Shown: positions 4,451 to 59,288, counted from the stretch's first letter. The stretch: DNA of 64,000 bases from Minutocellus sp. GHC0000111 (GCA_977018835.1 OZ361260.1:1302001-1366000), one strand, 5' to 3'. The notes: generated by a model from the sequence alone, not told the origin. Translations and numbers: made by a program.

Positions 4451-4461
4451 TGTAGTGACCC

Positions 4462-4708: not shown

Positions 4709-4719
4709 AGTTAGTGGAT

Positions 4720-31799: not shown

Positions 31800-34700
31800 A
31801 TGGCCGCCACCGCTCGGCCGAAGGCCTCCGGTACGCACCCAACTCCATTGATTCCTTCCCTCAATCTTCGGTCTCTATTGGAAAGACTTCGATTGTTTTT
31901 TCCGATTTTGCCGTCGGATCTTCTTACCGGTGGTATGATTCGACCGACGAACAGCAAGTCTTCCCCGATGCATTGCGCCTCTGTTTCGGCCGCCGGTGAA
32001 AAATATGTCGGTGGGCTTGGACTTCTTGGCATCTTTCTCCACTCTCTTCGGGTTGCTATTCAGGTTCAGATCGATCATTCAATTGCCGTCGTTGCTTCGT
32101 ATCTTGATAAAAGAAGGGAGGAGGGGTATTGTGAGGGAAGCGCCCGTGCTGGCGATAAGTCTTGTGCTGACAATGGCGACCGTTCCTTTTCCGGCATCAT
32201 CTTGATTGCTTTTTTTCTCGCCATCGTGGTCTTCCTTTGCGCTAAGACTTGGAGTTTCCTGTACGGGAAGTCGTTCCCCTCGCATTCCGCTCCTACCATT
32301 AGTGCTAAGCCCCGCATTGGTGCCACGGGGAGGAAGACGTGTAGTTCACGCGTCTCGAGGAGGCTTACGTCCTTGCTATACATCGGGACATTCCTTTCCC
32401 ATGTCATGAGCACTACTGCAACTTGCGTTCTCGACAAAGACTTCCGCAGTGGCTTCCTTGATGCGATTGAATCTATTGGAGATAATCTCCTCTCTGCAGT
32501 TGACGATCTTGACGACATTGGTATCCCCCTCGTCAGCTCACTTTCCCTGTCGAGCAAATTCAACATCAAAGAGAAAATTCATGACGTACTTGTTTCTGGT
32601 CTAGCATCGGCATGGAAGGAGGACTTTGCGACGTACGATGTCGAAGCACTTCTTGGGGTCGATGGAACGAATACTGCGAATCTCCCAGGCAATCCACAAG
32701 TACATCTGAATTGTTCCATTACTGACGGCGACCTTGACTTTGCACTTTTCCTTGATGGTATGGTAAACGAGTCATCGATTGATGCTGATATTACACTGCT
32801 CCCGTCACCTATGGAAAAACTATCGCTTTCAGTTCCAGAGGTTGTAGTCTCCTACTCTCTTGCTCTTCTTTTCAGCATTGATGTTGCCGACTCAATCGTT
32901 CTGTCCAACGAAATAATTACGAAGACTACCCTTGGTGATATAACTGCAGGCCTACGCTTTAGTGCCATTGGGAACATAAATCAAGAGATTCGCGATGTTT
33001 CAGCATCATTCGATGGAGATCTAGAGCTCGTGGCGGGATTTGATTACTCGTCTAAGAGCGGTAAATGGGAAAAGGGCGGTAGTTTTGATCTCGTCTTGGA
33101 TGCTACCGCGCCGACTACTCCTCGAGCCAATATTCGCCTTCTCGCCTCAGATGACAACATTTACGACGATGCTCCTCCTACTACGAGGTTCGATTTTGAC
33201 TTTTGCAGCTTCAAAACTCAGTTGAAGGATGCCATCTCTTCACTTGACTTGACAGGTGAAATGGGCAATCTAATCAGCCGGTATCTGATCCACGATGACT
33301 TTGGTGGCACGGACATTATTGGTCCAGTTACTGATGCTCTTGAGCAACTTGTAGAGAAAGAAGTCGATGACACAAGAACGAAGATAATGGCAGAAATCGA
33401 CAAAGTGCAGTGTGCCACAACGAGGTTGCTCAACGAAGTGGAAGTTCCGGTCGATGGACATCAAGTCCAGCGTACACTCTTGAGTCCCTCGAGCTTCGGT
33501 GATGTTGTGGAGCTGTTGACTTCAACCAGCAATGAAACTTCTCTTTCCATCGATGCTGGACTTTTCCCAACGCGAAAGGAGCTGGCTTTTGATTTTGCTC
33601 TATCCATCAACAAGGTTTTTACTTCTGATGCCTTTGTCGCTGCATTTAATTCGGTATTCGACAAGCTTGGAAACGCTCAGGACCAACTTGATCAGGTCAA
33701 TGATTCTTTCGCAGATCCAGCCCAACTTCTTCAGGCGGTGGAGTCTGTTGCTTCCTTCCGGATTGAAGCTTCCTTTGGAATCAAGGTCGAGAATATCACC
33801 GAATTCTTCTCATCGACTTCCGACTCTGGTGCATTCATTGGAGGGCCCTTTCTTCGCGTGGATAAGCTCGAGACGACGGCAAATATTGTTGCTAGGGATG
33901 TATCCGTCGACAACATTTTCTCCTCTGTCCACATCACTGCTGGGTCCCTCGACTCGTCTGTAGGATTTGGTCTACAGTCTCCGTCAGAATTTGCATTAGT
34001 CGCGACCGGCACCTTCGAATCTGGATTGACTTTTTCGGATCAGATTACTGGTGGTCGTCTCGACTTTGCTCCTCTAGGTGAACTCCACGCGAGGCTCCCT
34101 ATTATCGCAACCATCGGTGGCGAAGAAGATTGGAATTTGGTCGTTTCTTTTGAAGACGATAATATGTTTGACGATATTGATCCTATCATTGTTTTTGACT
34201 TCAATGCGAGTAAGATCCTGGACGCTTTGGACACCATGCTTGCGAAACTAGGGAATACCAAAATCTCGGCGGAGAAAATTCTAGGGAAAACTCTGCCAAC
34301 CTGCGGAATAGACCTTTTTCGGCCATTGAATCAGGTATTGATAGTCTCTTCCCTGACGCATCGGATTTTCTTGATGGCATTCTGGAAGCAAAGAATGAAT
34401 TTTATCATTTATGTAACGAAGCTGAGTCCACCGGAGTCGCGCCTTCTATCGAAGATGTAATATCCCTCATTCGAGAAGAAATTATTGGTGCGTCGGACAA
34501 AGCTATTTCGACTGAGAATGGTTCAAGCTCCAACTCTGATCGTCGGAGTTTGAGGGCTCATCATCTGCGAAGGACACAATATCAGAGACCCCGACGCCTC
34601 CGTGAAAGCAAAGGGAGATCGCTGCAGGAATCGACAAATCTAGTGGATAATCTTCTCGACGATTTCCGTGTTGATGGGGGTTTTGATGGAGAGAAGATTT

Positions 34701-37700
34701 TTGTTTCTCTCGCATTGGATTTGTCCAAGGAAGTTGTATCTGGAGTCGGTGATCTTCTAGACAAACCGCTGCAACTTCTAGGAGGTAATGATGCTGGCTT
34801 TCTCAGGGAGGTATTCGGATCTGATGGGAACATCAATAATACTGGTTTTGATTCTGGCGACACCGCGGCAAACACAGCCTTTAGCGCAAGCGCTCATCTG
34901 GAGTAAGTTTCCTCTTGGCACAGGGGGCGGGTATCGCTTGCTTCGGATATCATAGCACTCTCAGTTTTTACATAAATTCTTTTTCCCTTTCTTTTTCTGA
35001 TAACTTTCTTTCTCCGCCTATTTTTTTCTGCTCTATTGTCGTTGGTGCGTTAGGGTCCAAGTTGGATTCAATGTGGAAGGTTTGGACCTTGCTACCATCA
35101 GTTCGACGAATGTTACAGATCTAGGAGAGAGATTGTACATTCAAGTAAAAGATGCGTCGAGTAAATTTTCCGCCTCGCTGGACAATATTGATGCAAATAT
35201 TGACATTGGGGGTGTTTCCTCTCTTAGTGTCACGGATGGATATGTTGCTTGTCTGATATACTTTGGTTTACCAAGCTCAACCCGTCAAATTCCATTTCGC
35301 GAGCTGAGTAGTGTCCCTACGCTCATCAAGCAGCTTCAATGGCAAAAGGGGGGTATTGTTGATGTCTCTCTTCCCGTCGGGTTTGAAATCGATGGAATTG
35401 TTCAGATAAATCCGACGCTTTCCATCCAGGATGATAATCTTTTTGATTCTGAATTTCCAGTCATTGCTCTCGACGTGGATATCAGGTTAGTGCTGTCACA
35501 ATTGTCTCTTGGAAAAATATCAACAATTCTTGTGTGTTCTGTAGATGATTTATTTTGGATGAGCTTTAATGTTGAATTTTTCCTTGCTCTATATTTCGTG
35601 CTGAATAGTGACCTGATAGATGGCGATGACTTCATTGAAGGTATCCTTGACAAATTAACAGTTGGTCTTGGTCTTATTTCAGGAGAATCTGGTGAGGGTT
35701 TTGATGTTGGAGGTCTGGGAGAAAATATTGGGGGTGTTCTTTCCGATTTCGGACTGAATTTAACATCCCTTACGGCAGACTTTAAGGCCTTCTTTCGCTG
35801 ATAGCATGACTTCGGACCTCAGTCGAGTTGAGTTGCTCAAATTCAAGCCCCGTTCCCTTCCGCGCTATGTGAATACTTTGCAAGTTGGAAGCAAGAAGTC
35901 GTCCTGCCAATACTCGGCTCGATTCAAGAAGATTGTCTAGGACAAGCTAATCTCCACTTTCCCTGACCCTCAATATGATGGAGTATTGATCCCAGGTCTT
36001 CTTCTGGGTCGGGGAAGTATCGCCGATCTGTATACCTGTACGAACAGTTCTTGTGATGATTTCCCCATTAACAACTTCCACCAAGCCATTGCCGTGGCGT
36101 ATGGATATGCCACCACCTTCGACAAGGCGACTTCGTTCACCATAGATCAACTCCTTGTTCCTGATTTCAATGCGGAGGCGATTGTCCTCCTCTTGAATCG
36201 CCTTAAGAGCAAGAATTCACTCTTCAATCGATTCAGTTCCACTGAAAATGGACTACCTCTTGACCCATCCACGAAAGAACTATTCCGTTTAGAAAAGTAT
36301 CTGCCAGACATTCAAGTGGCTCTAAATCTTGCAGTGTCGACCGATCTGTCGGCATTGAGATTTGGTCCTCAAGATATTTCAGAAGCTTTGCTTCCTAATC
36401 CCTCCTTTCCGTCGCTACGAGCCCTGGCAGATTTTGCTAAGAAAGAATTGCTGGATCTTGATCTAGCCTTTACTGCTGATTTGGACGTACCCCCGCTCGA
36501 CATTTCTTCCCCTACTGTGCCTACTATCGGTCCTGATGGGTTCTCTTTTGGAAACTTTAGTGTCGATAGCACACGATTGTTCCCTCCCGCCATGGACCTT
36601 AATAGTATACAGGTGAATTGATTTTTTGGGGTTTATTCTGCGGGTTTTATCTATGTTAGGTACAATTACAAGCTCAGGTTTCCATGATATCTTGTCTAAT
36701 GTTTCCTTTCTACTTCACCTCCACAAAAATACAGGGCTTCCAATTTGACTTTGATGTCAAAGTAAAGGGTGGAGATCTATTCCTCAAGGCTGATTTTATC
36801 CTGAATGTCAAGAATGTAGACCCTATCAAAACTGCAAGCGATGCAGCTGCCAGAATTGGTGCTGTCCTATCTAGCGCATCAGGTCCTTTCAAGGACGTCG
36901 CTGGAAGTATTGATAGTTCCCTTACCGACGCGTCTGAATTCCTTAATGATGTTGCCGATATTTCATACCTAGATGTGGAATTGGATGCTGCAATCGACTT
37001 TTCCGTGGAAGCCAGTCTAGCAAATGGAGCCACATTTGAGGTTTCCTCAGTTATCCGGGAGTTATCTAGCGCATTGAAGGTAACTCTCGGGGTCAATGAT
37101 TCCCGCGTCACCGCAGTTGACCCTCGAGCTATCCACTACAAACGAAGCGACACCTTTTGATGTGTTCGGAGTTGACGGCATAAGCAAATTGGGAGATTTT
37201 ACCTTTGCTGGTTCTTTCTACGGAACTTGTTTAGTTTCCGTCGAGGACCTACCGGTCGACATAATCTTTGATGTATCAGTTCCCGATCTAGTCGATGCTT
37301 CGAGTGTGGATTTTGGTCTATCAATCGATCTAAACCTTGTACCTGTGAGAGATGACATAGGAGCATTACTTGACGACGTTGATCTGCTTTCATACAGTGG
37401 TGATGGCCCCTTTGCGGAATATGAGCGTTTCCTACCCACCATTGACTTGTCCTGTATCAAGGACTCTGGAAAAGCATACCTGAATCAAACCAACTCAAGT
37501 CTTCCGGTGTCTGGCTTCTTTGACGCTATTGCCGATGGTTGTTCTAACAATGAGCTCTTTGAACTTCTCGGCGGGTACAATGCATCCAGCGGTGAGCTTG
37601 GTATGAACGTTCAGCTAGAACTTTCCGTCGGTAGGTCTGCAAACGATGCAGTCAGGGCCCTCTCAGGACTCCTATCCTCAAATGGTTTGTCTCTTGGAGA

Positions 37701-40700
37701 TGAATTTTCGAACACATTGTCGATTTTTGATGGGATTGAGGTAGGAGGGCGCATCTTTCTTGATTTCAACTTTGGTGTTCGCGGAATACCCAAGGAAGAG
37801 TATAATTCGACGACATTTAGCGCCATCATTGATCCTTATTTCGCGATCAATGGCTTTGAGCTTGAGGCTTCTCTAAGAGGAGATGACATCAATATGACGT
37901 GAGTGGTACCTTTGTCGCACGTCAATGGGAATATTCTAAATAAATTATTTATGCAATGAACACTTCTCACTTTGTTATTTTCCTTCGACAATTTTTCTCA
38001 ATCTTCTTCTCTTTACGCACAGTCTCCCGGTATCAATTCAGAATCCTGGATCTACTTCTTCAAGAGAACTCCTCGAATTGAGTCTTCAGCAGGGCCTGAT
38101 ATCGATTGAATTTTCTGCGGTGCTTGACCAAGCGACAACTCCCGCCGAATTGCTCTCAGGGAATTCCAGCATGACCCTCTCCGGGGAAATGGATGTCTTC
38201 TTTCCAGTTGTGGCTGATGTCGCTGACGTTGAATTCGGCCTAGATCTCTTTATCCAGGACAATGATCTCTTTGACGACACCCCGATGTCTTTTGGATATG
38301 ATATTGACTCGTGTTCAGTTCGGAATGCCACGGAAGAATTGTTTGAGAGGCTAGCGGATGAAATCGAAGATCAAGTTAATGCTGTTCTTGGAGAGGGCGA
38401 CAATCTTCCCGTCAAAATCAACACTGACAAGCTTCTCGGTGGTCTAACAACGCCTCTTCGAAATCTTACGAATCAGATCAGGAGGAGCTTTTCGGATTGT
38501 GCTGAGTCTGAGGGTCGTAGACTCAGGCGGATCCTTGACTCGAATGTCACTACTGACGGTAACTTTACAGCCGTGTCTTTCGAAAAACGTGTCAGGATGG
38601 CGTTCGAATCGATAGACCAATCGCTCCGAGATATTGGCATTGTCATTGATCCAGTCATTACACCGAATTTCGATCAAACCAATTTTGGCCTTGGACTCAG
38701 CTTAAATCTTACCGTCACTGCCTCCAGGACTGCCGAGGAAATAAAGGCGCAACTCGGTGACTTTGAGAATGTTTTTGCGTCTGCCACAAATACATCCAGC
38801 GAAAATTCCAGCTCTCTCGACGCTCTTGCTGTCGAGGGAACAAACGAAACCTCAGTGGTTGACATCAATGTTGACGACCTCCTCAACAATACGGTTGTGT
38901 TTGCTAGCTTTGACATTGCATTCAAGATTGAAATCGAGCTGAAGGAGATGCAGAAGGTTCTGTCTGGTACATCATTCGATGATGCTATTGCCTCGGGAGT
39001 GGTGCTGACAATTACCGACTATGGCGCAAAAGCTGGCCTTGTAGTGGACCCCATCAACATTGAAGTTAACCTGGGCTCCAGCAGTCTCGCCGTGCGCGAT
39101 TCGTCCTTCGTTCTTTCGGCCCAATTGGATAAGGTGGAAGGCGCATGGCAGTACTCGGTCCAGAATCTTATCGAAAATGACTTCACGGCGGCAAAATTGG
39201 AGCCAGAGCCATTTCAGCTTTCACTCTTCTCAGAGATTGTCGTGGATGTTAATGTTTCCGACGTGCTGACGGTGTCTCCCATCATTGAGCTCTCTAGCAC
39301 CAACCTGATTGGAGGAGGTATTGACGTTGGGTTTGAGTAAGTCGTTTGATGTTGTCATTTTCCCGTTTCTCCAACTTACCTCGATAAATAAAGAAAAGGG
39401 GAATTATAAGGCCATAAGTCAATTCCTTTCCCCTTCCTGAATGTTTTTTCGACATCCTTCCTTATCCTTAACCTGATTACTGAATTTCTCATTATGTATC
39501 CACTCATCCTTTCCCCTTTCCTCGTGCATTTGGTTTGGTCCTTGATGTATTCCTTGAGGGTAACTACGATCTTCAGAGCATTTTTGGCGATTTGCAAGAC
39601 CTTCTCGAAAACGTCACTGCTTATGCTCCGGAAGTGACTTTGGGTGCCAACTCGACACAAGTAAGCGGGATATTTGGCGTCATTTCGGATTTGAGTCAGT
39701 TTTCCAGTGCCTTGGTCGAATTTCTTGAGATCGTAGACCTGATCGAAGCGGAGATCGACCCGGAACTCATGGCTGTGCTAAGACACGCTAGTGTCTTGTC
39801 ACCTTCTGAACTAGGCTGTCAGCAGCTTTCCAGTACATTTGCAGAGTACACTGAAACACTTCTTGGTACTAGCAATGTCAGTAACCCGTGCGACTTACTC
39901 CCGGAAATCAAGCAGAAGCTCAATTATTCAGCAGATCTTCTTGACCAAGACAATGTTACTCTGCAGAATCTTGTAGAATTTTCTGGGGAGTTGCAAAGCA
40001 AAATCAATGTTTTCCTTGGCTGTGAAACCGATGACATCGAGAAAATTGTGAAAATGTTTGGTATGAAGAGTGCCCGCAGACTAATGGATGCAATCAAGGA
40101 CTATCTCCTTGAGGACCCGGCTGGAAACGACAGAAGAAGATTGTCTAGCTCTTTTGGCCAGACGAGAGATGATTCCTACACACAGAGAAGCATGGGTGTT
40201 ATGCGCGAAGTACGCCGAACTTTGCGAGAGTATGGCTCACCTGTGCAATACAATCACCGAAGGCTTCTCGATAATAAGGACGATCCTCTTCTTTCTCTCA
40301 CTGTGAATGATTTCTTGCGATTATCTTTTGATGTTAATTTCGGCGGAGGCGCCAAGGCATTGCTCTTCTCCGTCGATTTCGATTTCGATGTTGATCCCAA
40401 CAAGTAAGTCTTTCTCATTTATTTTATTGCTTGTTGAATATTAGATGTGGGCATCCATCCTATATGTGTGCGGTGAAACACTTATTTCTCAACCACTGTC
40501 TCTATAATTTCAACAACAAATGTGTAGAATGGGAGCAAGTATCGAAGAGGTTTTTGAGGATTTCATAAGGGATACGATGGGAGGGAACAGCGAGCTTGAC
40601 TTTTCAAGTGATACCGACGCATTCAGTTTTTCGGAACAGGCCGTCATCCTCGCCAATAGTTTGGTAAATAGTATTTATGTCGATGCAAGCGCCGGGTGAG

Positions 40701-43700
40701 TTCGTACCCGCAAGACTCTGGATGACCTTCCTTGTCTCTGGTAAAGTGGTGCTTCTTCTAATGACCTCTTCAACGTTTTTGTATTTCTCAAACTCAAATA
40801 TCCAGGCTCTCCGCTACCTTTGGCATGGATCTCGCGAAAGTGTTTGACAGCAATAGCGACCGTCTTCCTGAAGTTATTCTACGTCTGGATCGCGTAGACG
40901 TCGCTGGAAGATTTGGTCTGAACGAGTGGAGCGCTGAAGTGCTGGTGGGCGACGCTCCTACTCGGATAGACTTTGGTATCGCGGAGGGAAAGGCGCTGAT
41001 TGATCTTGGTGCCAATATTACTGGTGATCATGACTCCATCGTGCTGGCCAGCGCTTCAGATTTTACAAATTTGTTCAATTCGTCAAGATCTACCTACATC
41101 GATCTTACAGCGGGAGTCGACATCGATTTCCCTATCTTCGTCACTATTGGTGCTGTCGGCTTTTCTGCGCGAGTTGGATACGTTGACGATGACATCCTTG
41201 ACGATGCCAATACCAATATTACTTTCGCCTCAGACATTCTATTTAATCTCACTGCTATCAGAGAGGCAGCACACGAATTGGCAATAGTTTCGGAGAGTCT
41301 TGATGTCGAGGCCCTACGGGAGCCTTTGCCACTTATTGACAGATCTCTCAACGAACTTATTGCTGGCAAGGGACGAAAAATTAGCGGTCTTCTTAATCTT
41401 ACTGACTGGGCCAATATCCTGGGTAGCACGACTCTCAATAACACCAGCCCGGGGAGTCCAGCTGATACAAGCAGTACAGGTCCTGGAGGTGGTCTCATAA
41501 CCAAAACAGAGTTATTGAAAGAGGTACGGAAAGCTGTGCAGGGAACCTTTGGTGATGTGGATCCTAGTGATGTGAATCTCACAGACATACCTACACTTCC
41601 AGATGTAAGAAGCTTTCAACCAGAGAATAGCATCGTTTTCGCTACTGCCATTGGCCATTCCCCCGGTGGATTTTGCAATGGAACCGACAAGGCTATCTCT
41701 GTTTCCATCGACGGAAATGAGGACAATTTCACCATAATCATTTGTTCATTACTTGGATTCGATGATGAAAAAATTTGGATCCTTCAGCTTTATTCGATCT
41801 AAATGATTTTCCCATTGAGCTTGAAATTGAAGGTAGTGCCGCTATAGAGTGCTCTCTTACATTTGGAACAAAGATCCAGGTTAATAAGGTGACCGATGGT
41901 TATGAAGTGGATGTAGATTTTGAGCCCATCAATGTAAGGATCGCGCTTGGGGCTGACCCAAAAATATTTCTTGGCCTCGGTGTTGTCGACTTCCAATCAC
42001 GGGTAAATGCATTGTTGGAAGGAGAATTTGGGATTTCGTATTGCTCGGGGGGTCAGAATTGTGCGGGAAGTTCCTATGGGCAGCTTAGCAATTCCTCCTT
42101 CTACCTCAAAAGAGATGTAGGATACCAAATGAATGGCGATGTCACGTTGAAAACTGATTTAGACGGACTTAACCTTGGAGATGGACTTGAGCTTGAAATC
42201 AGTGACATCGACGTCTTCGATGATATTGCGCCTGAAGTTCTTATTCCATCCCTCGATGATTTCCAAGATCTAATAAAGTTCTCTCCTGCAAACGCAATCA
42301 GTCTCCTACGTCTCATAGACAGTGCGCTCGCCGAGGCAGCTCAAAACGATGCCTTTCAGACACAAGTCCCGCTCATGGACAAGGCAACTTTTAGCGATAT
42401 CCTGTCGGTCGGTAAGAGCTTTACCGCTTCGCTTTATGAGTTCTTTGTTCAAGCGGAGCCCTTTGGCGAGCGTGGCGTCAAGTCATTGACGCTGAGCACA
42501 GAGAACGGACTTTCCACGTACACCAGTGGAAAGGGCTTACTGAATTGTGGCGAAAATGGGACTGACCCTTGTCTGTTTGAGTTGTATCTTCTCAATGGTG
42601 AGCTTACTGTAAATCCTGATACTACAGAGGCCAATATCAACAATCTCCGGGACATCTCAACGCGCTGTCCCTTGAATCTAACCAACACGCTTGGGTCTTA
42701 TGTGGAGAATCTTCGGGCTGAAATAAATAACAACAGCTGTAATATCACTGCCTGCAGTAAGAACGAGTGCGCCGGTTCTTACGAGGAAGATGGTGGCTCC
42801 AATTTTTATTGTTCGAATGATTGCGACATTATAATTGATTTGGATCCCGACAATGATGATGAACAAGATGACGAGGTGTTGTTTCTCACCACAGTCCCCT
42901 ATCGCAACGCCAACAAGACGGTCATCAATGACATTCAGTTGATGGGAATATACCACAAAAATCTGTCCGATGTGAAAGGCAAAACCAAAATTATGGGTCT
43001 CCCTATCAATAGCCCCGTCCTTCCTGCCATTGTACCTAGATTTAGAACCTTACCAGATTTGGCGGAGAAGATGAGTCAGGTTCTGTCCGACGTGACCAAT
43101 CTTGACGTACAAATCACAGCTTCGTATGAGTCTGCTTCAGAGTCAGAATCTGTTGTAGGAAGCTTCCTCATAGGTGTGGAATTTGGCAAGGGTATTGGGC
43201 TCAACCTTGGTCAAGGGACCCTATAGAGCAGAATCTAGCCCTTGGTGATCTTGCAAGTATTGGAGTATCGGAATCACAACTAACTATCGGTGGTGAGGCC
43301 AGTTTTTATACTGAATTTGGAGTCATCCTCGAAGCTCCGAGCGAGAAGGGTCTTATCATGATAGGAAATGCATGCAACGGGACAGCTGGCTTCAACTGTT
43401 CTTTCACGCCCTTCGATTTTGTACTCGAGTGGACCGAGGACGGCAACAACAAGGTAAGGAACCTGGTGGCGAGAATTCTTTCCTTTATTTCTGTCTCCTC
43501 TTGAAAGTTTCTCACACCACTTTCCCCCTTGATTTCTGCTATCAATATCACTATTGTTACTATTATCCGTTCGTCTATTCGTGATCAGACTGAAACTTTT
43601 ACCACGGCCAGCTCCAACAATTCCATTTCGTGCCTCCAAAATGCGAATGGGGGAGGAAACATTCTATTCGGCGAGCTAATATCGTCCATTCAGGAAAAGG

Positions 43701-46700: not shown

Positions 46701-49700
46701 TTTTGCCTGAGGAGGTGAAGAAGGTTTTCGAAGATGTTAGGCCCTGGATTCCCACACTCCATGGCAAAATCGACGCTCACGTTCGAGAAGGAGTATCAAC
46801 CTCAAGGAGGCGCCGTTTAGGACTAGAGAAAACAGGGAGGAGACTTTTGAGGGAGGCATGGTCCCATGAAGATCCATCTCTGAGCGGTAGCCTTCGCTTG
46901 GTCAGATCTCTTGCCGGCACTGAAGATATCCCTACCGACACCGATTGCAACGTCAATGTAACCAACGACGAGTTTGCTTGTGTTAAAGTCAATGAATTGG
47001 AACTTGACATGGCCAAGATCATAGATTTCGTGGAACCAATTCTCAAGAAGCTTGTCAAGGTCGATGAGAGTGATCCTGATTGCTACTTTGACAAGGTCGG
47101 CGAACCTCTTCTGGAACTTGACGAGCCTCTTCCTGGGATATCAGACATTGCGAACAAGAAATTATCGGCTCTTGATGTTGCAGAGATCTACGTCGGAGAA
47201 GAAAAGTCTGGCGCCGACACCGTCCGCAAAGTAATCAAGATTTACGAGTCCATAAAAGATTCGGCCGAACAATTTAATGACACCGAGCCCCTCAGACTAG
47301 CCGACTCGTGTACTTTCCGATCTGGTACAACGTTCAGTGTGCAAGATCATTGCTCAGGCGGACTCATCGGGTCAAATAGGCGTTTGAGTTTCGAGGAGGA
47401 GATGGGGTTCCATATCTTTCCGATGCTTGACGCAGCTGGACTTCCAATGAGCCCGAATGAACGTTACCTACAAACTGCCGACTGCTCTACTACAAAGTGC
47501 GCCAAAGAATGTCAATGTTCGGAAACTACTAATAACGCAAAGTGCAAAGCCTTGGTGCTCAAATGCAGAGCAACGACCACCGAGGGGCTCTCGTTCCCCA
47601 TTTTGGAAGATCCCACCTCCGCCATTGGGCTTCTTGCTGGCCAAGATGTCATCCTTGTGGACTTTTCTCCTCCACCCGTCACATTTGCCTTCGAGTACGA
47701 TCTTTCATTTGTCATCTACACACCTCCAACGGTCGAGCTTGGGATATTCTTTGAAGTCTCAGTCACGGTTCAGTTTGGTGTGGTACTAGACACAAAAGGC
47801 ATCAGGGAAGCAGTCCAAGAAGGAAAGCCGGAAAAAGCTCTCAGTAGTTTTGCTTTGAAGGATACCTTCGATGGTCCTGACTTACCTCTCATCAAAATAG
47901 AAGCAACCGTTGGCTTCGATGTTGCGGTCAGTGCCGCCATTGTTCGAGTCGGAGTTTCAGGATCGATTTCCTTTATTGTAACAATTGATTTCTACGATCC
48001 ATTTCCCGAAACAAGTGGGGGTCTAATTCGTCCATACGAGATGCTAGTATTGGGGACAAATCCGCTGGATTTGTTCGAATTGGAACTTCAGATCAACATT
48101 GCTCTGTCTTTTTACGTTCAAGTCGGACTGTATCTGGGTTTTGTCAAGATTACCGTCTTTGAAATACGAAAGGAAATCAACTTTGCCATTTTTGACCCCC
48201 CGCTGCTCGTACAGCCACAGCCCTAACTCTGGATGTGAAGTCTGGAGTTTTAGAATTGATTACAGACGGAGAGACTGTATGCAAGAGTATGGAAGGCGAA
48301 GTTGGTAACGAAGTAATACAATGCTGGAAGGACACAGAGACAAATCCTATCATTCCTATCATTCGGACGTACGAAGGGGTAAAGCGTATTGGCGATGCAC
48401 CAACGAGTGTGATCAGTTCTCCCGGTGCAAGGAGGGCTCTCAGCGGAGCTGGCGTATCAAATAGAACGTTCGAATGTATCAAATCACCGGTGAACGCTGG
48501 AGATGTTGGCACTCTTGCCCTGAGCTACGCTGAATGTTCTGGCTACTCGGTTGGAGATGTTGTCATTCACAACGGGCATGTTCTATTTGGTCCTGGAGAG
48601 GTCGCTTATTCATCCTTGACAACAAATGGCTTGATCCGATATCCAAGTATAGATGCAGCCGGAATCATTACAACAGTCGGTGGAGACTGCAATGATTTTT
48701 GGGATCTCGAAGGTCATACGAATCTTGTTATCAATGCCTATGAGATACAGCAGGGATGCCAAATCTCTGCCTCGGGTGGAACAACCAACGCCAAACTTGT
48801 TATTGATCTTGGCTACGAGAGCCTGACATCTTGCGAGGATGGCAACAAGGTTCGAGTTTTTAAGGAGGATTCTGTTGATGGTGGTATGAACGTTGAAATT
48901 TTACGTTGGGATTGGACAGATGTTGTGACGATATTGGCTGGCCCTCTCTTTACCGACATTGCGGTGAAGGGGTCCTTATGCAGTGACACAATTTCAATTC
49001 TCAGCACACAAGATGATACAAGATCGATTGAAGTATACGGTGGCGAGGGCGCGGACACCGTTGTGATTGGTTCTGAAAGTTATGGTGTCGATGAGATTGA
49101 GCCAACTCTATCACTTTATGGCGGGGGGTCTAGTTCTGGCGATACTCTTCGCATCAATGACTCTGCTTCATCACAGAACAAGGACATTACCCTGCGATCC
49201 ACTTTCATCCAAGATATGCTGGACAATGCCAACTCAACTATCAACTACAGAGGTTTTGAAACCATAGATATTTGGCTCAGTGGAGGTCAAAATCGCTTCA
49301 CAGTTGTGTCGACTGCTGTGGATTCCTCGACGTACATACAAGCGCAATATCAGAATGACACCATTATTGTCCAAGAGACTCAGGGCTATCTGCAACTTCA
49401 TGGTGGAGGGGGAGACGACGAAATTTCCATATACGGTCTCGGTGAAGGAACAGAAGCTGTTGTATACGGAGATGGTGGAGATGATCTTCTCTTCGTCGAT
49501 GGAAGGGGCGATCCTAACAATACAAACGCCACCGATCCTGTGAATACTCTGGACGGATCAAGGCTGCGGTGGAATGGTGGCAGTGGAAACGACACACTAA
49601 CGCATCATTTCACATCTGCTGGCACATCAGATTTGGACATATTTGATGACGACATGGATTCAAATCTTGTCTTTGTGGAATGCTCGGGTTTCGACTCAAG

Positions 49701-52700
49701 AATCCTTAGTCGGCGAACCTTCCTGGCAAATCTAGGTGGTGAGGGCGAAGGCGCATACCTGGAGCGCTTAAATGTTGACATCGCTACTGCATCTATCACC
49801 TCCCTCCTCATCTCCCTGAACGAAGGAGAAAATTTTGTTTACTTTGACGACAATGTTGCGACAACGGTAAGTTTATTTTTGACGAAGCGAGGCTTCTTAC
49901 ATTCAAGGAGTTGTGTGTACATAGGTAGGAATGCTTACTGAACCTATTGTCACTGCTCTTTTTCTTGCAATTTCCAAAAAAACTACAGCAAGTGGACGGT
50001 GGACCCAACACGGACGAATTCAGATTTGGCCAGATGTTTAATTCAGAAAGAAGCAATGAAACGTCCGGGGTTTCTACTGAGGACTTCATTGAGACAACGT
50101 TGACAACAAAGGGTTATCTTTCGGATGCCTGTTCTCATCCGGTTACTGTCAATGGCGGTGGAGGTAATGATTTCTTCGACGTCTTACGCAACAAATGCTT
50201 CCTTGATCTCAATGGCATGTCAGGAGACGATGGATTTGTTGTCCGATCTTTCATTGCCGCAGTTGCTGATGACGGAAGACTCATTGATCCTGAGCTCGGG
50301 AGAGTTAAAGTTGCCGGTGGAGATGACACAGATACGGTTGAAATATCCGGCGATTCGTCGCAGAATTTGACGGAATTCTTCTCACTGAGAGAAGAGGTAG
50401 ATCCTGACTACCTTGTAAACTCTCTGGTCGACGTCGACGGCGGCACAGGAACCGATAGTCTTCTTGTGGTGGGAACCGAGGCAGATGATTCCTATGTTGT
50501 CCAGGATGGCAAGAAATTTGGTGGCGGCTTAACGATCAAGTACAGAAACATTGAAACTCTTGACGTGACAGGAGAAGAAGGCAACGACCTCATATCTGTC
50601 TTGTCGACCAGCCCAGACATAGCTTTGAGCATATACGGGTCAAAGGGATCGGATCGATTTGAAATAACGCCGAGAAATGTAGCTCCGGTAACGTCGAAAA
50701 ATCTCCGTGGACACAGGGGCATTATCGAGCATACAATTTCGGCCTCGGACGACCCTGAGTATGATGGTCTAAGGATTCGTGGAGTTGCCGTGGATATTCT
50801 CGACAATGACGGGGACTACGGATACGTCAGCGTTGTGGACCAGGAAAAGATTCATCTCATGTCAGAAATCATGTCAGAAGATGATAAGATCATGGGACTT
50901 GAGATCGGGACATTTTCGTTCGACATATTCCCGACACGGAGGCCGCAAGATGATGTATACGTCAACGTTGTTGCACCCTTTGCACCAAATAAAGAAACTT
51001 ATCTGTTCCAAAATGGGAAAATGACGGAGATTCTCTTGTTTGAGGCTGGAAATATGACTCCTCAGACAGTGACAGTTTCGTATAACCCTCTGTCAGAAAA
51101 GCTCGATCTTACAGAGATCGACTTGGCCTTGAAAATTAACATTGATGTCGACGGTGGTAAGACCAGGGACCCCAGATTCAACACAACCGAACAAACTCTC
51201 CTTCCTGTAGACATTAGGCTCATTCCATCAATGGATAACGATGCAGGAGCCATGTCTGTCACGGTGCATGAAAAGGGAGGCAGCACTGCTGTTGCAGAAG
51301 GTGGCGTTCATGGGTTTACAGACAGCTATGACATTTACCTCCGCCCATGTGGTAATGACGCTGCTTTGAAGGAAGATGTGATGATTGTCATTGAAGAGTC
51401 TGTTACGTCTCAAGTGAAAGTAAGTCCACCTACTTTGGTTGGATCCGACTTTAACGTTGCTTCAGGTTGCAAGGCGACCATCACGGTCTCCGCTCACAAC
51501 GACGGGCTACAGGAAGGTGATCACTTTGTGACGCTTCGACATGTGGTGAAGAATATTACTTCGGACGAACAATTTATTTTGTCCGACGGAACTCCTCTTC
51601 TCGCTGCCAATGTTTTTGTGCACATCTTCGACGATGACATCGCAGGCGTTGTCGTCAGGGAGACGAATGGAATCACGGCCACCGCCGAGATTCACCCAGA
51701 CGATCTTCCCATTGTCCAGTACAAGCCAGACCTATACCAAGACCAGTATAGCCTTCGACTTACAAAAGAACCAGTCGGTGATGTTACAATCTCTGTGGAA
51801 AGCATGATCGCTGCCAGTGATCGAGAAGGATACTTCACACCCGAAGGAAGGGACACCACGAAAAGAAACCAGCTCTTTCTCAACGCGGAGGGGACAATAG
51901 TTGAAACGCTGACTTTCACCGCTACAAATTGGTCGTCTTATCAAAATATCACAGTGATGGCATTTGACGACAATGTGACAGAGGGTGTTGACTTTTTGAA
52001 TTTTGCTTCTCAGCCTGCCTGTCTTGCTCTTCTCCAAGGACCAATCACTATCTCAGGTGGCACATCGCCTGAGATTCCAGACATCGGAATTCCCCTCATC
52101 CTACCGACTGAAAGCAACCCCGAAGTTTTCAGCCCACCGCCTAATGTCACAATAGATGATTCATCGACATATGCCATTGAAGAAAACCAAGTTGACTCAC
52201 TGGTCATCTTCAACTGGGATGTTAGAGGAGATAACCCCTCCAATGGCACCTTGATTGCAGATCAGTTTACGGGAATGGGCATGAGCCAAAATATTTTCGT
52301 TGGAGGTATTCGGCAGAAAGATGGCATCTTTTTTGCTGGCATGGAGATCGTAGAATTCCATCTTGGCAATGGAATTGACAACATTGTTGTGGAGGAGACA
52401 TCTTCCGCTATACACATTATGGATCTAGGCGGTGGAGATGACAATGTCCAAGTCCAGCAGATTTCGGGGCCTTTCATCATCCAGGGTGGTCCTGGTGATG
52501 ACAATGTCTTTGTCTCTTCCAATTCTTCTAAACTTGACGAGATTCGTGCGCTTTTGGCCTTCGACGGGGGCTCAGACGACGACGGTGACGCTTTGACTCT
52601 AGACAACACCGCAGACACCGAAGTCGATGATGTCCTCGATCTCACACGTCTTCTTATCGAGGTGGAGAGCATGAGTCCCTTTCCCGCCACCAACACTTCT

Positions 52701-55700
52701 GACTTACCCGAGTCTTACAATTCCACGATCGAAATTGCCCCAGTGCTCCCGCGCGAGTCATATTTAATAAACTTGCGCAATGCGTCAGGCGGAAGCCTTA
52801 CGTTGGTTGCCCAGGACCCGACCGACAACTCGACGCTTGTTGATGGAATTCAAGCCAACAGAACGCTCACTATTGATTATCCATTCAACGCATTGGAGCT
52901 TGAAGGCTCGCTACAAGAGCTGCTGATATCTGGATCTTCTAATGCGGAGACATCGAAGCAATGCGGAGAGCTCGGCACTACAAAATGCAGCAACGCCGTG
53001 CGCGTTTGGCAGCTGGGAGATACAGACGTTTTTGTTATCTTCTTCTTGGGCGAGCGTCTCAACTCCGATGTCTCAATAATAGAAATGGACACCTACGGCC
53101 TGAAAACTTTCGACGGTGAGCTTTTCCAGAATAGATCCAATGATCTTCTCTTCAAAAACTCGGATGTTGCCTATACCACCGTTGACACCTTGAATATCAA
53201 GATGGGGCACCAAGACATTGTGTGTAATATTCGCGGAACTTCAGCTGAGACGTTTATCACAACACAGGAGGGCGACGATCCTATTTTTATATCTTCAGAC
53301 GCCAGCGTCAGTGTCGAGGAGGCACGGAGCATTCCAATTATCTACGGTTGGCTAGATTATTTGCACAGGAATCTACACGTCGAAGCAGGTCTAGGCCGCC
53401 ATCGCCTGCTCATGTCTGACGAGTCCAGCGACGTTCCAAAAGGCCACGGGATCTATGGTTTTGCGCAGCTGAATTCAAGCAGCTTAAAGAACCTGACCGA
53501 TGATCTGGGCAACATATACTTCAATGCCGAGGATGGAAACTGGGCAGAAGGGGTAAATCTGTGGCTGAGCCCAGGTGATGATCATTTGGAAGTAACTTCA
53601 ATACCCACGATGTTGCCGTACCGAACGACAACCTCGGTGCATGCAGGGAACGGTGCTGATATTCTCATCATTGACTTAGATTCGATTGAGAACGATGGAG
53701 GTCAATTTGTTGGAAATGGACAAGGCGACAATGACATTTTGAATGCATCGTCATCTTCTCTCGATGTGATCCTATTTGGAGACGGTGGGAACGATATCCT
53801 TGTGGGAGGTTCAGGAGGAGACGTACTAATCGGCGACTTTGGTCGCGTCATGTGGGTCAATGAATCAACATCTTCTGTAGTTGCAGTCGCCGGTGGAGGT
53901 GGCTATGGAGACAGAACAGATGGGGTACGTCGAAGTATTCATTCCATTAGATCGTACTACTACACGAATTACTCGTCGGGAGAGGCCATAGTTGACGGTG
54001 GATGGGACATTCTAACTGGGGGTTCATCGCGAGACGTGCTCATCGGAGGTGATCTAAACGATACTATTGAGGGAGGCGATTGCTCTGACCTCATTTTTGG
54101 TGATTTCGGGACGCTTGAATTTGAAGTGGAAGCGCCCAATCTTGCCGGTGCAATGCAAATGTCAACAATTGATTGCAACCAAGGAGATTCAGATCGATTG
54201 CATGGAGACTATGGCGATGATGTTGTCATCGGTGGAGCCCAAGGCGATTATATTTCTGGTGGCTCTGGTGACGACGTTCTTGCTGGAGATTGCATTTCAG
54301 TACTTTTTGGCCAAACGGATTTTAATGTCACGAAAATTGATTCCTCTAATACAAGCATTGGCGGGGAGGACACTATTTATATGGGCCCTGGCGATGATAT
54401 TGCCATTGGGGGTGCATTCACCGATCATGTATACGGGGAGACGGGCAGAGACGTTATCGTAAGCATATTACTTGCTTCGCTTCAAAACTGCATGCTTTCA
54501 TTTGAACATGTTCCCTTTCTTATCTCTGTCAGCTAACACTCCTTTTACATTTTATTTCTCTCTTCACCCCCTCCCCCCCAGATTGGTGACTCTGCAGAGA
54601 TTCATCTAGAGGAGGGGAAAGTACCAAGTTCAGTTGTGACGAAAGCCTGCGAGGATGGAGACCATGACTTTCTGTACGGAGGACCAGGCGAAGTAGACTA
54701 TATCATTGGAGGTAGCTACAACGACACCATAGAAGGAAATGAGGGCATGGACATGGTATTTGGCGACCACGCACTTATATTATTCAATACAAGTCACCCA
54801 TACATGCTGAAATACGCTACAACGATTAACGCGACGTGTACTCCCGGAAGCGACAACATTACCCTTGGAGAGGGTGATGACATTGCATTTGGGGGTGCAT
54901 TTGGTGACGAGATCGATGGTGGAGAGGGGCAAGATATTATTCTGGGAGATTTTGGCCTGTACAATGCAGAGATCGAGTTCCTTCCCAATCAGCACTATGA
55001 AAGCATAATTGACTATCCCCATGTAGCTGGACCTGATGTAATATCAGGGGGTAACGGTGATGATATTCTCATGGGCCAAGAGGTACGAGCGATGTTCTGA
55101 TCTTATGCTATGCCAAAATTCGTGTTACAGTCGTTTGTATCTTTTATTGTGGCTCATATTCTTTTTTCATTTCATTTGAAACCTTTTGGATATTGAATTG
55201 TAGGCCAACGATACTATAAGTGGAGGGGGGGGGCAGTGATGATATTTACGGAGGTCACCACAAACGTCACGGCGAAGACATAGGCGACATACTTTCCGGA
55301 GGTGAAATGGATGATGTCATTCTCGGTGATAATGGTGGAATTATCAGGGAAATCTTCAACTTCACGTCAAGGTATCCATGGATCAATGGAATCGTTTGGA
55401 TAGCGTATCCCCAGCCATTTGACGATGGAAAGATTCGCGATGTTAGGCGCTACGATGACATCGACTTTGTTGAGGTAAGTCCAATGCGTTCAGTTTCAGA
55501 GTGCCTTCACCTAGCTAGGCATCTGCGAAGATACTGACACCTACTTTCAACTTCTCCTTTCGCTACAAATTCACAGGGAGACGACGAGATTCATGGCGAG
55601 TCTGGTAATGATGTTTTGCACGGACAAAGAGGAATCGATACCATCTTTGGTGGATCAGGCGAAGACGAGGTTTATGGAGAATTGGGTAGCGATATCCTAG

Positions 55701-58690
55701 ATGGCGGCACGGGCAACGACATCGTTCTTGGAGACATTGGCTACGCAGTGAGGCGTTATCACGATGGTACTTTGACGCCCATCCAAAATAGCAAAACGAA
55801 CAACGCTGATGGCCGTGACGTTTGGCACAAGGATATCATCCTCGAAGAAATCGGCAGGATAACCTGCGTGCACTAAATATCATCAGCAGTAGACACAGAA
55901 GAAGTCCGATCGGAAAATGTTATGTCTTCTTCTCTCCTCTTCGTAACGTCGGCATTCGATTCAACTGGAGACAAGGTGACGGACCAATCCAATGAATCAT
56001 GGCAAACTGACCTGCTCTGCTTTGAATTAGTTGAAAGTGATGATGACATTATTTCCGGCGGAGACGGGGATGATATTCTCATAGGACAACGCGGCGATTA
56101 CACCCTCTTCGGTAACGAAGGTGACGACGTCCTTATTGGCGATGGTGGATCAAACACCAACGCTGCAGTTGAGTCAACGGACATGCCCCAAATATTCCCC
56201 GTCTACAGGGCAATGGATTCTCCACCTCAGAGTGGCTACATAACTGATGCAACCGACTTTGGTGTGCTCTTTAACGCAGACTTCGAGCTTTACCCAGGTC
56301 AATATCGTGAGACCGAGCTCCTATCTTCTATCATCGACAAGGCCGTTAAGATGGCAGATGTTGTCAAGCCCGATCTTGTTCGAGATCTTATTGGAGTCTC
56401 ATCACTGAGTACACTGGAGGAAACTTGTATGCAGGCCATGTTTCGAATATCACCGGGCTTTATCCAACCGACACAAAGGATTCACAGAAATGATGATCTA
56501 TTCTCAGGCCCGGGCGACAACCTCTTGATTGGTGACGATATTAGAGGATTTAGCGGTCTGGATGTGACCGAGTTGTCAGATATCCAACGGGCAAGGGACA
56601 ATATCGACCGACTCATTTCAGATGTCGGGGATCAAATTTCTACCATCGAAGTAGACACCGAAATATATTCGAATTGGGCCAACCATACGGGGTCGAATGG
56701 TGCGGTCGTCCCACAACTCATTGTCGGTTGCGACAACATAACAACAAACTCAAGCGGTACAGGTCTGGTGACCGGAGACTCGCTTACACTCGTTTGGGGT
56801 ACATCGTTAGGAACAATGTTCGGTGAAGATAACACTATCACGAGCAAGGTTCAGCAGATATTGGAGAGGCTTAGGGACATTGAATTTGTTCTGATGAGAA
56901 TTCACATGACCTTCTTTGAGATTCACGATAGCCTCCTTCGACGCGCAGCGGAAGACAGCACAATTCCTTATCTCAAAGACGGACAGCTATCAACCCACGA
57001 GCTCAAATTAGCAGATGACATGATTGAAGCTTACGGGGACGGGGACATCATCATCGGCGACTCCATGACTTTGTTCTTCCAAGCTGATAAGAGTGCTTTT
57101 CCGTTCGAGTCGCTGAAAGATTCTGAAAACACCCAGTCTCTGACCAAGGCTCTGAGTGTTATCCAGACTAGGAGAGACGACGAGTTGGAATCTCTCGTCA
57201 CCAGTCGATACGATCCAAAGGATTCTCCCCTCAGTAATACCGCGAAGACAGATATACCGTTTTACGACGTTCCCTTCCTAACTTCAACTGCCAACGACTA
57301 CATTTACCTCGGAGAAAATGCTATTCTTGCTGCAGGTGACTATGCCTTCATTGGCGTAGTAGCAACCGAACAAGACCCAGAAAACAAGCAAATCATACAA
57401 AAGTCCTTGACTGATTTCATCACAAGCGTCCACACTCTTGGGAAAATTCCCAGTGTCGAAGTTTTCAACGAGAAACAGGAAATTTTCAAGATCGACACTT
57501 ATCGTCAGCGATATGGATCTGACATTGTTAAGCAGACAGAACCTGTGTTCCATGGCGATACCTTTGTTGGAGAATCATCAGAAAACACAATTCTTGGGGA
57601 CTTTCTTACCATGAGTGTATTTCATCTCGCTGGTGCTGATTCTTTGGAGATCGATGCGAGCTCCAACGCATTTGGCGAATACCAAAATGCCTATATTGCC
57701 ACACAAATCTCCCCTGACACCTTCCGTGTCAATGGCGATGGTGAGCCTCTCGCCCGCAAGCAGACACAGAACGATATTGTGGAGGGTCAAATCGACTCAA
57801 ACTCCAAACCCGATGAAAGGATTTTGGCACATGCCAAAATTCTTTTCCTGAGGCATACCCTGGCAAAGCAAATGGAAGAGGACGTGTTTAGCGATTTCGT
57901 GCGAAGAGATACTCGTGACGATCTAGGAGAAGAACTTTACTGCACGGACCCAATCATCAGCAGCTTCATTCCATCTCGTGATACTATATCCGCCAGTACA
58001 GCCCTCTACATTAACAGCCCATCGTCATCTTTGGAGGCTCAACCAGACGACCCATACAAAGTAGTCCATGAAACATCAGTGAGGAACGAGTCTCCAGAGA
58101 CCCACATTGGTATCGAGGCCGAGGCCACAATATCCTCTGACGTTTTCGTTCATGAGACAAGAGAGCATAATGACATGCCCCCAGCGGCATCAGAGCCACT
58201 CGAGAGTGGCACGCCTTCATTGGCACCTGCAGTGTTTTCTGAGGTCACAACATCTACCTCTGACGTTTTCATTCATGAGACAAGAGAGCAGAATGACATG
58301 CCCCCAGCGGCACCAGAGCCACTCGAGAGTGGCACGCCTTCATTGGCACCTACAGTGTATTTCGAGGCTTCGAGCACGAGTCAAACCCCGTCGGCAAATC
58401 CCTCAAGAGTGGATGTACCACAGGCACCGATTAATTTTATGAATCCCTCTGCACTGCTCAGTACCTCTCTCTCTCAAAAGCCTTCTGTAATCCCATCGCT
58501 GTCATCCGACGCTCCGTCGCTATTTCCTACGGAAGGACCATCGTCTACTTGTACTCGAGATGGCAGCACTGGCTGCAAAAAAGTCACGTGCTGTTCTGGA
58601 CCTGGTCAATGTTGTGGAAGTGGGAAAAAGGCGGTCTGCTGCAGTGCTGGACAATCATGCAGAAAGAATAAATGTGTCTCTACTAGCTAG
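31800..58690 (+). CDS. Giant (~8,000 aa) secreted or surface RTX Ca-binding adhesin-like protein, about 15 introns; several frameshifts and one in-frame stop in this assembly
   Basis: Contiguous + strand ORFs are joined by GT-AG introns, e.g. 34903-35053, 35486-35608, 36613-36734, 37899-38022, 40404-40527, 46242-46400, 54459-54580 and 55083-55203. The sequence is acidic and beta-rich with many GGxGxDxL and xGD motifs from 49.0 to 57.6 kb. It ends in a Pro/Ser stalk and Cys-rich tail. Confidence 0.8.
58133..58368 (+). repeat. In-frame 123-bp (41-aa) duplication in the Pro/Ser-rich stalk
   Basis: CTCTGACGTTTTC starts at 58135 and 58258. Confidence 0.92.
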
Positions 58691-59220: not shown

Positions 59221-59288
59221 AAAGCCCGGGACGATAGGATAGCCAACGAAGCGCTTTGCCGATGATTCATAAACCCCATCGAATGCAT
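59221..59288 (-). pseudogene. ~68-bp fragment copied from the VAT-1-like gene (27071-27137)
   Basis: AAAGCCCGGGACGAT(a/g)GGATAGCCAACGAAGCGCTT...AAACCCCATCGAATGCAT matches both sites. Confidence 0.9.

Follow-up and report, generated by a model that had tools for sequence, protein, structure and literature searches.

The 64,000-nucleotide stretch of Minutocellus sp. GHC0000111 analysed here (GCA_977018835.1 OZ361260.1:1302001-1366000; hereafter the window, with positions counted from its first letter) carries on its plus strand, at 31800-58690, a giant intron-containing gene that a first-pass annotation had read as one continuous coding unit for a bacterial-type RTX adhesin of ~8,000 residues. 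The locus raises the question of whether such a protein is still encoded there, and to what family it belongs. We consider it very likely that the locus is a young transcribed pseudogene, which is transcribed and spliced but has its frame broken at nine sites. In our best explanation it was a member of a family of giant, secreted proteins with RTX repeats and likely lost its function not long ago; this family is apparently an undescribed, eukaryote-adapted variant of the giant RTX-repeat proteins of bacteria.

A spliced transcript from a giant gene

Public contigs were aligned to two parts of the window, 29000-46400 and 43000-62700. The RNA contigs come from study P2 (X5) and study P3 (X6 and X7). 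Within 31800-58690 there are 15 GT..AG introns, in keeping with the ~27-kb gene and the roughly 15 introns first proposed, and 13 of the 15 are observed as joints in RNA contigs; the remaining two, 54459-54581 and 55083-55203, are predicted, keep the frame, and coincide with alignment breaks in the related sequences L082 and L085. A 20,108-nt RNA contig of X6 is spliced across 31421 to beyond 46242, and the front part of the gene is therefore a single transcript. RNA contig cover declines toward the 3′ end of the gene. The gene has kept its introns and its transcript is spliced, as expected of a transcribed unprocessed pseudogene.

From the ATG at 31800 to 58690 the spliced length is 24,886 nt, or ~8,295 codons, and the conceptual protein is acidic, as had been noted (Asp+Glu 15.6%). 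The proposed length of ~8,000 residues therefore stands for the spliced sequence, but the first stop lies 886 codons past the ATG and upstream of every RTX repeat, and the full protein is not possible from this copy. The first open frame terminates at the stop at 34458-34460 and is 67% identical to the homologue P0012 across 729 aligned residues. The spliced 5′ leader (30259-31561) contains no long open reading frame (ORF), and we note an alternative NAGNAG acceptor in it, used at 31421 in X6 and at 31424 in X5. The parts of the gene are listed here.

30259-30396, 30560-30701 and 31421 (or 31424)-31561, plus strand: 5′ leader exons, with RNA joints in X5 and X6
30397-30559, 30702-31420 and 31562-31786, plus strand: three RNA-supported 5′ leader introns, upstream of the coding part
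31787-34902, plus strand: first coding exon, of large size; possible ATG starts lie at 31539 (in a leader exon) and 31800
35054-35485, 35609-36612, 36735-37898, 38023-39336, 39577-40403, 40528-40695 and 40806-43453, plus strand: exons, with RNA joints
43589-44081, 44202-45748, 45878-46241 and 46401-49866, plus strand: exons
49867-49988, plus strand: intron
55475-55576, plus strand: intron, with RNA joint
58688-58690, plus strand: last stop of the gene

Nine breaks in the reading frame

No single open frame runs across the spliced mRNA, and the view of one continuous coding unit has to be given up: there are ten open frames divided by nine breaks (frameshifts, in-frame stops and one out-of-frame splice), and the lesions are of mixed type, including +1 and −1 shifts, a multi-codon loss, stops and the out-of-frame splice. 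The relatives against which the breaks were read include two intact diatom proteins, GAX18396.1 of Fistulifera solaris (FisN_2Lh003, 4,978 aa; P0004) and CAB9505197.1 of Seminavis robusta (Sro222_g091180, 5,257 aa; P0196).

34310-34335 (near 34320), plus strand: break 1, frameshift within an exon; P0012 reads through; X1, X5 and X6 contigs gapless
35780-35940, plus strand: break 2, at least two lesions (a frameshift and an in-frame stop, or several frameshifts)
37084-37160, plus strand: break 3, frameshift; X1, X5 and X6 pieces gapless
39337-39577, plus strand: break 4, RNA splice from 39336 to 39577 (X5, X6) that puts the exons out of frame
41769-41802, plus strand: break 5, frameshift; X5 and X6 pieces 40805-43451 gapless
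43205-43240 (near 43222), plus strand: break 6, frameshift; P0002, P0004 and P0196 read through
48196-48226 (near 48223), plus strand: break 7, out-of-frame loss of ~4 codons relative to P0001 (91% identical)
55220-55239 (near 55230), plus strand: break 8, frameshift within a run of G, read through by four homologues; X1 contig 55019-58220 gapless
55874-55876, plus strand: break 9, a TAA stop in frame, read through by L082 and by four homologues

In studies P2 and P3, spliced RNA contigs carry breaks 1-7 with 0 gaps; breaks 8-9 are carried, also with 0 gaps, by the unspliced X1 contig 55019-58220. Because they are present without gaps in independent contigs, and breaks 1-7 in the RNA of two studies, the breaks are not assembly errors. 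X1 is possibly related to the source of the window but departs from the window sequence at several sites; the runs that gave the RNA belong to other studies. A further X1 contig, 29527-36576, has 0 differences from the window, and both it and the X5 RNA piece 35607-36576 cross break 2 without a gap or a differing letter; the X5 and X7 RNA pieces are gapless at break 7, and the X1 contig crosses break 9 without a differing letter. At break 4 the acceptor at 39577 is likely a cryptic one.

When an X was inserted at each break, homologues aligned across it at all six testable breaks and in 18 of 18 local alignments, so that disabling lesions stand where homologues are intact at six of six. The tests used P0012 at break 1, the F. 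solaris and S. robusta proteins at break 5 (with weak local scores of 102 and 65), and these two together with P0001-P0003 at breaks 6-9; breaks 2-4 are covered by no homologue. At break 6 a second copy in X1 also stays in frame. The long ORFs of the adjacent housekeeping genes appear intact.

Alleles, a second copy and the age of the probable decay

Variant tables were drawn on for 80 of 327 rows (40 of 171 and 40 of 156), of which 41 fall in the coding part and were classed. Sixteen are silent and 25 are not, including two new stops, one private to X10 (at 34592) and one private to X1 (at 51297-51299); private stops and mostly non-silent allele differences would fit relaxed selection, at the few sites that these rows provide. 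The two near-identical contigs of X1 differ from the window at nine letters, giving six residue changes, one stop codon (two letters) and one silent change. X1 contains in addition a more divergent copy, the one in frame at break 6, and X1 variants equal P0001 at 7 of 11 non-synonymous rows within the range of P0001. Contig depth is ~94-114 over most of the gene and 150-200 in parts, but depth is not copy number, and the case for a second copy was built on sequence letters with depth set aside.

Several observations weigh against a pseudogene. With four outgroups, derived residues number 35 in the window and 32 in P0001 (124 unpolarised), showing no excess on the window branch, and the end branch of the window is short in trees. 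Despite the early stops there is enough of the mRNA for a spliced contig of 20 kb to be assembled, breaks 2-4 have no homologue for comparison, the second copy is observed in fragments only, the X10 contigs have other indels (at 41660 and 42047), and the variant rows drawn on are 80 of 327. Given the absence of an excess of derived residues and the short end branch, the inactivation is therefore probably recent.

Three other accounts of the locus deserve comparison with inactivation. The first, which we regard as improbable, is that either the truncated first frame (a membrane anchor and ~886 aa in all) or the RNA as such was retained in some new role, the rest being a long dead 3′ tail. This frame is stop-free and retains its similarity to P0012, X1 has no variant in 29527-36576, and contig depth is greater in the 5′ part, though depth cannot rank gene parts; on the other hand, a first frame of this length is often expected from random lesions at this density, and its stop shows no sign of a complete domain boundary. 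Less probable again is a broken mRNA that functions by recoding or re-initiation, with programmed frameshifts and read-through yielding low levels of full protein, or with the ten frames as separate subunits in place of those released by RRxL cleavage (see below). A single long transcript with correct splicing in both studies, the same haplotype in several samples, amino-acid decay that is not in excess, and the location of several breaks within short homopolymer runs would all fit; however, the breaks vary in direction and kind and share no slippery motif in their contexts (judged by eye), homologues with 91% and 72% identity have no break at these sites, the second copy keeps its frame at break 6, other alleles bring private stops, and a hydrophobic targeting segment is present in the first piece only. 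Least probable of all, to the point of being negligible, is the idea that we suspected first, homopolymer assembly or sequencing error in an intact gene: several breaks do lie in homopolymers of G, A or T, where long reads typically err, and the mis-calling of giant RTX genes as pseudogenes is frequent (10.1101/2025.09.30.679566), but the contigs, from four to five public runs of which at least three are recorded as Illumina RNA, agree with the window at the breaks with 0 gaps, which disposes of it largely for breaks 1-7, and neighbouring genes keep long intact ORFs. A recently inactivated gene thus remains our preferred reading of the locus.

Relatives and probable bacterial origin of the family

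The F. solaris and S. robusta proteins are the only named eukaryotic homologues, and both are from diatoms. We note that Sro222_g091180 carries the automatic name 'Kringle domain', which may have hidden it from RTX searches. A scan of GTDB confirmed 114 of 156 candidate stretches, 80 of which were kept; a first metagenome scan confirmed 0 of 71 stretches and a second 8 of 141. The bacterial matches are mostly within very long ORFs of Planctomycetota, Verrucomicrobiota, Desulfobacterota, Actinomycetota, Cyanobacteria, Proteobacteria and others, and the named ones are annotated as 'Ca2+-binding RTX toxin-like', 'calcium-binding' or 'LEPR-XLL domain' proteins. The F. solaris protein and P0197 of Nocardioides are collinear in one piece over ~1,950 residues (28% identity, E 2e-127).

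Two trees of a 250-column core place the eukaryotic sequences together, with unnamed rows called eukaryotic by their interrupted frames and their closeness to the named diatoms. In the first (a mixture model, with 46 of 87 rows dropped at segment extraction) the eukaryotic rows form one clade of 10 of the 41 rows, with support of 100/100, and in the second (a quick method with LG+G4, 110 rows, without L088) one clade of 13 of the 110, with SH-aLRT 100; the midpoint root of the second falls among bacteria of about 13 phyla. Both trees are unrooted, the eukaryote stem is long and no single donor is picked out, points that count against the proposed history. The earlier proposal of horizontal acquisition, followed by gain of introns and of eukaryotic secretory features, finds support for the family, through the single eukaryotic clade beside bacteria of many phyla, the collinearity with bacterial proteins and the RRxL motifs described below, but the tree assigns no donor and is without a root.

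Intron positions are common to eukaryotic copies that are only 40-55% identical, and because they are shared among copies so divergent, which also have the conserved RRxL motifs described below in common, the transfer is probably old; we conclude that the family probably entered diatoms once, long ago, from bacteria. One widely shared intron, at position ~47655, is present in L082, L083 and L085, and 36 alignments among 149 representative proteins (P0013-P0162) start or stop at this one position; the window copy does not have it, and it seems likely from the sequences that it was lost in this lineage. Integration into the host is evident from the spliceosomal introns, the eukaryotic neighbours and the X1 contig 29527-36576, which bridges the left junction. 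The G+C content at third codon positions of the giant gene is 0.46-0.48, at the low end of the range of its neighbours (0.50-0.88).

Our literature searches found no description of this giant RTX-repeat family in diatoms, although the diatom horizontal gene transfer survey of Vancaester et al. (2020) may list it; the passages and listed supplement rows of PMC7335047 contain no mention of RTX or Sro222_g091180. Members occur in two genome-sequenced raphid diatoms and in many unnamed environmental sequences.

Anatomy of the encoded protein

The encoded protein can be described from the ten pieces read together, and its parts are as follows.

32178-32250, plus strand: predicted N-terminal membrane anchor or signal segment, shared with P0012
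35054-43453, plus strand: degenerate N-terminal repeats with DDNxFDD-like motifs, LPxIxxSL blocks and RRxL clusters, found by motif search and self-alignment
43589-48223, plus strand: long beta-hairpin/helix region, common to the bacterial giant proteins
48223-52517, plus strand: RTX-like beta-roll units, a conserved TTxGYLS / GND.F.V.RN core and Calx-beta-like Ig domains (the latter at ~50700-52000)
53700-56158, plus strand: main RTX nonapeptide region, with Pfam PF00353 at 54186-56158
55877-57980, plus strand: C-terminal domain, common to the diatom homologues, planctomycete L003 and verrucomicrobial L022
57980-58690, plus strand: Pro/Thr/Ser-rich linker, in which 123 nt are tandemly duplicated (58134-58367), and a Cys-rich tail

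The segment near 32178 is the sole hydropathy peak above 1.9 among the ten pieces. For the N-terminal third a length-limited search returned one homologue, P0012, and the ~3,000 residues of degenerate repeats are missing from the F. solaris and S. robusta proteins, whose alignment to the window starts only near 41300-41775. The structure model of 46409-48220 has a predicted local distance difference test (pLDDT) score of 83.8 and consists of long beta-hairpins (15-20 residues) and helices. It has no Foldseek match at E 0.001, with weak top rows only, and against PDB structures it gives generic beta-meanders only (VIA-align best Z 9.2 over 89 residues, root-mean-square deviation (rmsd) 4.5); such generic matches to a model do not show that the fold is new.

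The model of 49989-52517 (pLDDT 62.9) contains a beta-roll and Ig-like domains, with CfaB pilins and NCX1 Calx-beta domains as its nearest structures; the Foldseek rows for the NCX1 calcium-binding domain have E values of 0.003-0.03 on this model of pLDDT 63. For the Calx-beta/Ig-like segments first described there is this resemblance in a modest model, but Pfam Calx-beta (PF03160) has no match in the 21 window pieces or in four eukaryotic homologues, and the LTFTATNW.. segment occurs once in the window, where it matches a motif repeated in bacterial proteins. The GGxGxD-type repeats are real but restricted to 48196-58687, with 29 against a shuffle mean of 7.1 (maximum 15 in 300 shuffles); the first 5,107 residues contain 6, against 5.1 in shuffles. 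Pfam HemolysinCabind (PF00353) matches 4 of the 21 ORF pieces, all in 54186-56158, three above the Pfam cut-off of 23 bits and one below it. The LPLIDRSLNELI-type blocks also hold up, with 3 against 0.26 expected, in a lenient test whose pattern was derived from the window itself.

NCBIfam matches to pore-forming or toxin domains are far under the cut-off and limited to repeats, the HExxH protease motif is found neither in the window pieces nor in three homologues, and the LEPR-XLL motif (NF012209) is absent from the N-terminal pieces of the window and from P0004, while being present in the bacterial relative L009. The ESM Atlas returned bacterial clusters without a name at 0.90-0.93, with low recognition, which are leads only.

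Comparison with known giant proteins

The closest comparison is with the F. solaris and S. robusta proteins, which are collinear with the window over ~41300-58000 at 26-41% identity and have Pro/Thr/Ser ends, RTX repeats (by a Pfam run on P0004) and RRxL motifs at matching places. They differ in being uninterrupted, in a start that looks like a signal peptide by eye, and in being without the extra ~3,000 N-terminal residues and the membrane-anchor-like segment of the window. The bacterial giants (Nocardioides WP_310300358.1, Saccharothrix WP_309110846.1, Verrucomicrobia MCC5845792.1 and Pirellulaceae L003) share the beta-hairpin region, the TTxGYLS core, the Ig-like segment and the RTX repeats in the same order, and L003 and L022 also have the C-terminal domain in that order; unlike the window they are intronless and depleted in RRxL, and the window pieces have no LEPR-XLL match. 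A LEPR-XLL/RTX giant has been named in Vibrio, without a functional assay in the parts of PMC10868602 that concern it.

MpIBP is an RTX adhesin. For the definition of such adhesins we follow sections of 10.1101/2025.09.30.679566. Like LapA, MapA, FrhA and SiiE, the window protein is giant and acidic, with C-terminal Ca-binding nonapeptide beta-rolls and, as in some of these adhesins, Ig-like domains; it differs in having ~800 residues after its last RTX match and in its eukaryotic host. The N-terminal pieces have no Pfam or NCBIfam match to a retention module, and contain the hydrophobic anchor-like segment instead. A tandem string of bacterial Ig-like extender domains is absent as far as the data reach: self-alignment gives weak degenerate repeats only, 46409-48220 is modelled as hairpins and helices, Ig-like domains are limited to ~50700-52000, and most of the front part is without a structure model. 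No Pfam match to ligand-binding domains (carbohydrate-binding modules, vWA, PA14 or peptide-binding) occurs in the window pieces or in four eukaryotic homologues. NCBIfam finds no C-terminal signal for type I secretion; the C-terminus is the Pro/Thr/Ser linker and Cys-rich tail, and the locus is eukaryotic.

Among the Gram-positive relatives, P0117, P0098, P0112 and P0197 (Actinomycetota) combine RTX repeats with what appear by eye to be N-terminal signal peptides, and on account of these, type I secretion seems not to be a requirement of the family. No ABC-transporter ORFs were found on the plus strand beside the bacterial relatives, where the giant ORF fills most loci. The first-pass designation as a type-I-secreted RTX adhesin was therefore too specific, and the family resembles an RTX adhesin at most, having neither the extender stalk nor the type I export route.

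The Trailins of Craspedostauros australis (CaTrailin4, 894 kDa, from a 28,951-bp gene) are also giant secreted diatom proteins with bacterially derived domains and with Pro/Thr/Ser-rich and Cys-rich parts, as set out in portions of 10.1101/2023.03.06.531300. They differ in having CAA/pAdhesive_15 domains, which have no Pfam match in the 21 window pieces or four eukaryotic homologues, and CaTrailin4 is predicted there to be intronless; RTX, hemolysin, Calx and RXL have 0 occurrences in the main text of that source. The RXL-processed wall proteins (silaffins and Silicanin-1) likewise have RRL-type motifs in a secreted precursor (passages of PMC5525289), but they are small and silica-associated, and cleavage in the giant family is predicted from its motifs only.

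RRxL motifs and a possible route for intact members

RRxL motifs number 15, 3, 4 and 3 in four eukaryotic sequences, against 2.2, 0.7, 0.5 and 1.0 expected, and 43 in the bacterial ORFs, against 76 expected, a depletion. F. solaris, S. robusta and P0002 have them at corresponding positions, and those near 46806-46850 and 47378-47390 are conserved in the diatom homologues. RXL processing occurs in diatom wall proteins, and the motifs are typical of biosilica-associated proteins, according to the relevant passages of PMC5525289.

The copy in the window is transcribed and spliced, and ribosomes would stop on it after ~886 codons, leaving no RTX-bearing product; a second, roughly 91-95% similar, P0001-like copy likely supplies the function. 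For intact members we tentatively propose a route, to which we give slightly less than an even chance. The protein would enter the endoplasmic reticulum (ER) through a signal peptide or anchor (the N-termini of P0004 and P0196 look like signal peptides by eye), a diatom RXL-processing protease would cut it at RRxL sites, by analogy with wall proteins (PMC5525289, in part), and its Pro/Thr/Ser linkers would be glycosylated, by analogy with the trail proteins of 10.1101/2023.03.06.531300 as far as that source describes them. Outside the cell, seawater calcium may fold and stiffen the RTX beta-rolls and the Calx-beta-like Ig domains, as in the RTX adhesins treated in parts of 10.1101/2025.09.30.679566, and the end product would be a large matrix or adhesion scaffold. 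It tells against this that the adhesion role of family members is itself drawn by analogy, and that the adhesive-trail paper names no RTX protein in two sections on adhesive trails (10.1101/2023.03.06.531300).

Conditional on the family reading, and concerning function alone, a non-adhesion role is possible but rather unlikely: the beta-sheet front half might bind or move lipids or insert in membranes, or the protein might belong to the silica wall matrix. The 15-20-residue beta-hairpins of the 46409-48220 model and the weak top Foldseek rows for gasdermin pores, MTP and lipovitellin (E 0.007-0.07) point toward the former, and the typical occurrence of RXL motifs in biosilica-associated proteins (PMC5525289, same passages) toward the latter. 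However, the fold matches are all non-specific (TM-score at most 0.16; the best Z, 9.2, covers 89 residues with an rmsd of 4.5), HExxH is absent, the toxin-domain matches are confined to repeats, and the same front region is found in free-living bacteria without silica walls.

A matrix or adhesion scaffold thus remains the role that we prefer, and it invites a fuller history that we offer as speculation, doubtful in its entirety. This would be an undescribed and anciently acquired diatom family of 0.5-0.9 MDa RTX-repeat polyproteins that moved from bacterial export to the ER route, had RXL cleavage sites added, and is cut into calcium-stiffened subunits of an adhesive trail or biofilm matrix, its front half being a beta-sheet superstructure without a solved relative; the present lineage would have added ~3,000 residues, duplicated the gene and lost one copy. 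If so, the lost copy gives natural loss-of-function alleles. That this copy is probably dead is in itself ordinary, and the useful result is the family that it reveals: diatom adhesion and gliding are poorly understood, and Sro222_g091180 of S. robusta offers a direct experimental handle. There is also a warning for annotation, as a perfectly spliced 20-kb transcript may encode no full protein.

Flanking region and other observations

The neighbours of the giant gene are those for an O-fucosyltransferase, Alg9, RPN1, a JmjC protein, a major facilitator superfamily (MFS) transporter, Sec6, an alcohol dehydrogenase and RFC3, and the immediate flanks are formed by a duplication.

28457-29586, minus strand: left flank, with a second 3′ end of RFC3 and the DNA that lies downstream of it; left junction bridged by X1 contig 29527-36576
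61060-63664, minus strand: right flank, with the RFC3 gene and the DNA downstream of it, which form the other duplicate

This direct duplication of the RFC3 3′ end and the adjoining downstream DNA (28457-29586 and 61060-62562) brackets a 31.5-kb block containing the giant gene. The coding parts are identical at 354 of 360 nt (6 differences) and encode the same protein, while the flanks are 72-93% alike and the non-coding parts far more diverged. The position of the giant gene between two RFC3 3′-end copies suggests a recent rearrangement; the duplication may reflect a template switch between haplotypes. Within the right copy and missing from the left is an element of ~300 nt (61646-61942) with 26-nt terminal inverted repeats; contig depth over it is very high in both X1 and X10, and it is likely a miniature inverted-repeat transposable element.

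Directly downstream of the giant gene lies a high-copy repeat (58768-59424), with an X1 contig depth about ninefold above that of the gene, and a 69-nt piece of it recurs at 27070-27137. A 119-codon frame is present on the minus strand at 59578-59937. At 59996-60444, RNA and DNA contigs match short stretches and then continue into unlike sequence, which suggests a fragment of a gene sited elsewhere. Toward the left end of the window, 6137-9260 (plus strand) contains interrupted frames in which Cys/His clusters occur and, near the end, the Walker-A-like motif PTGTGKS; it has no Pfam match and is possibly a decayed mobile-element helicase gene. A tandem-repeat cluster at 2764-5414 (132 nt × 2.7 and 186 nt × 4.3, with TCAGGG/CAGGGT-rich units and strong GC skew) is subtelomere-like in appearance.

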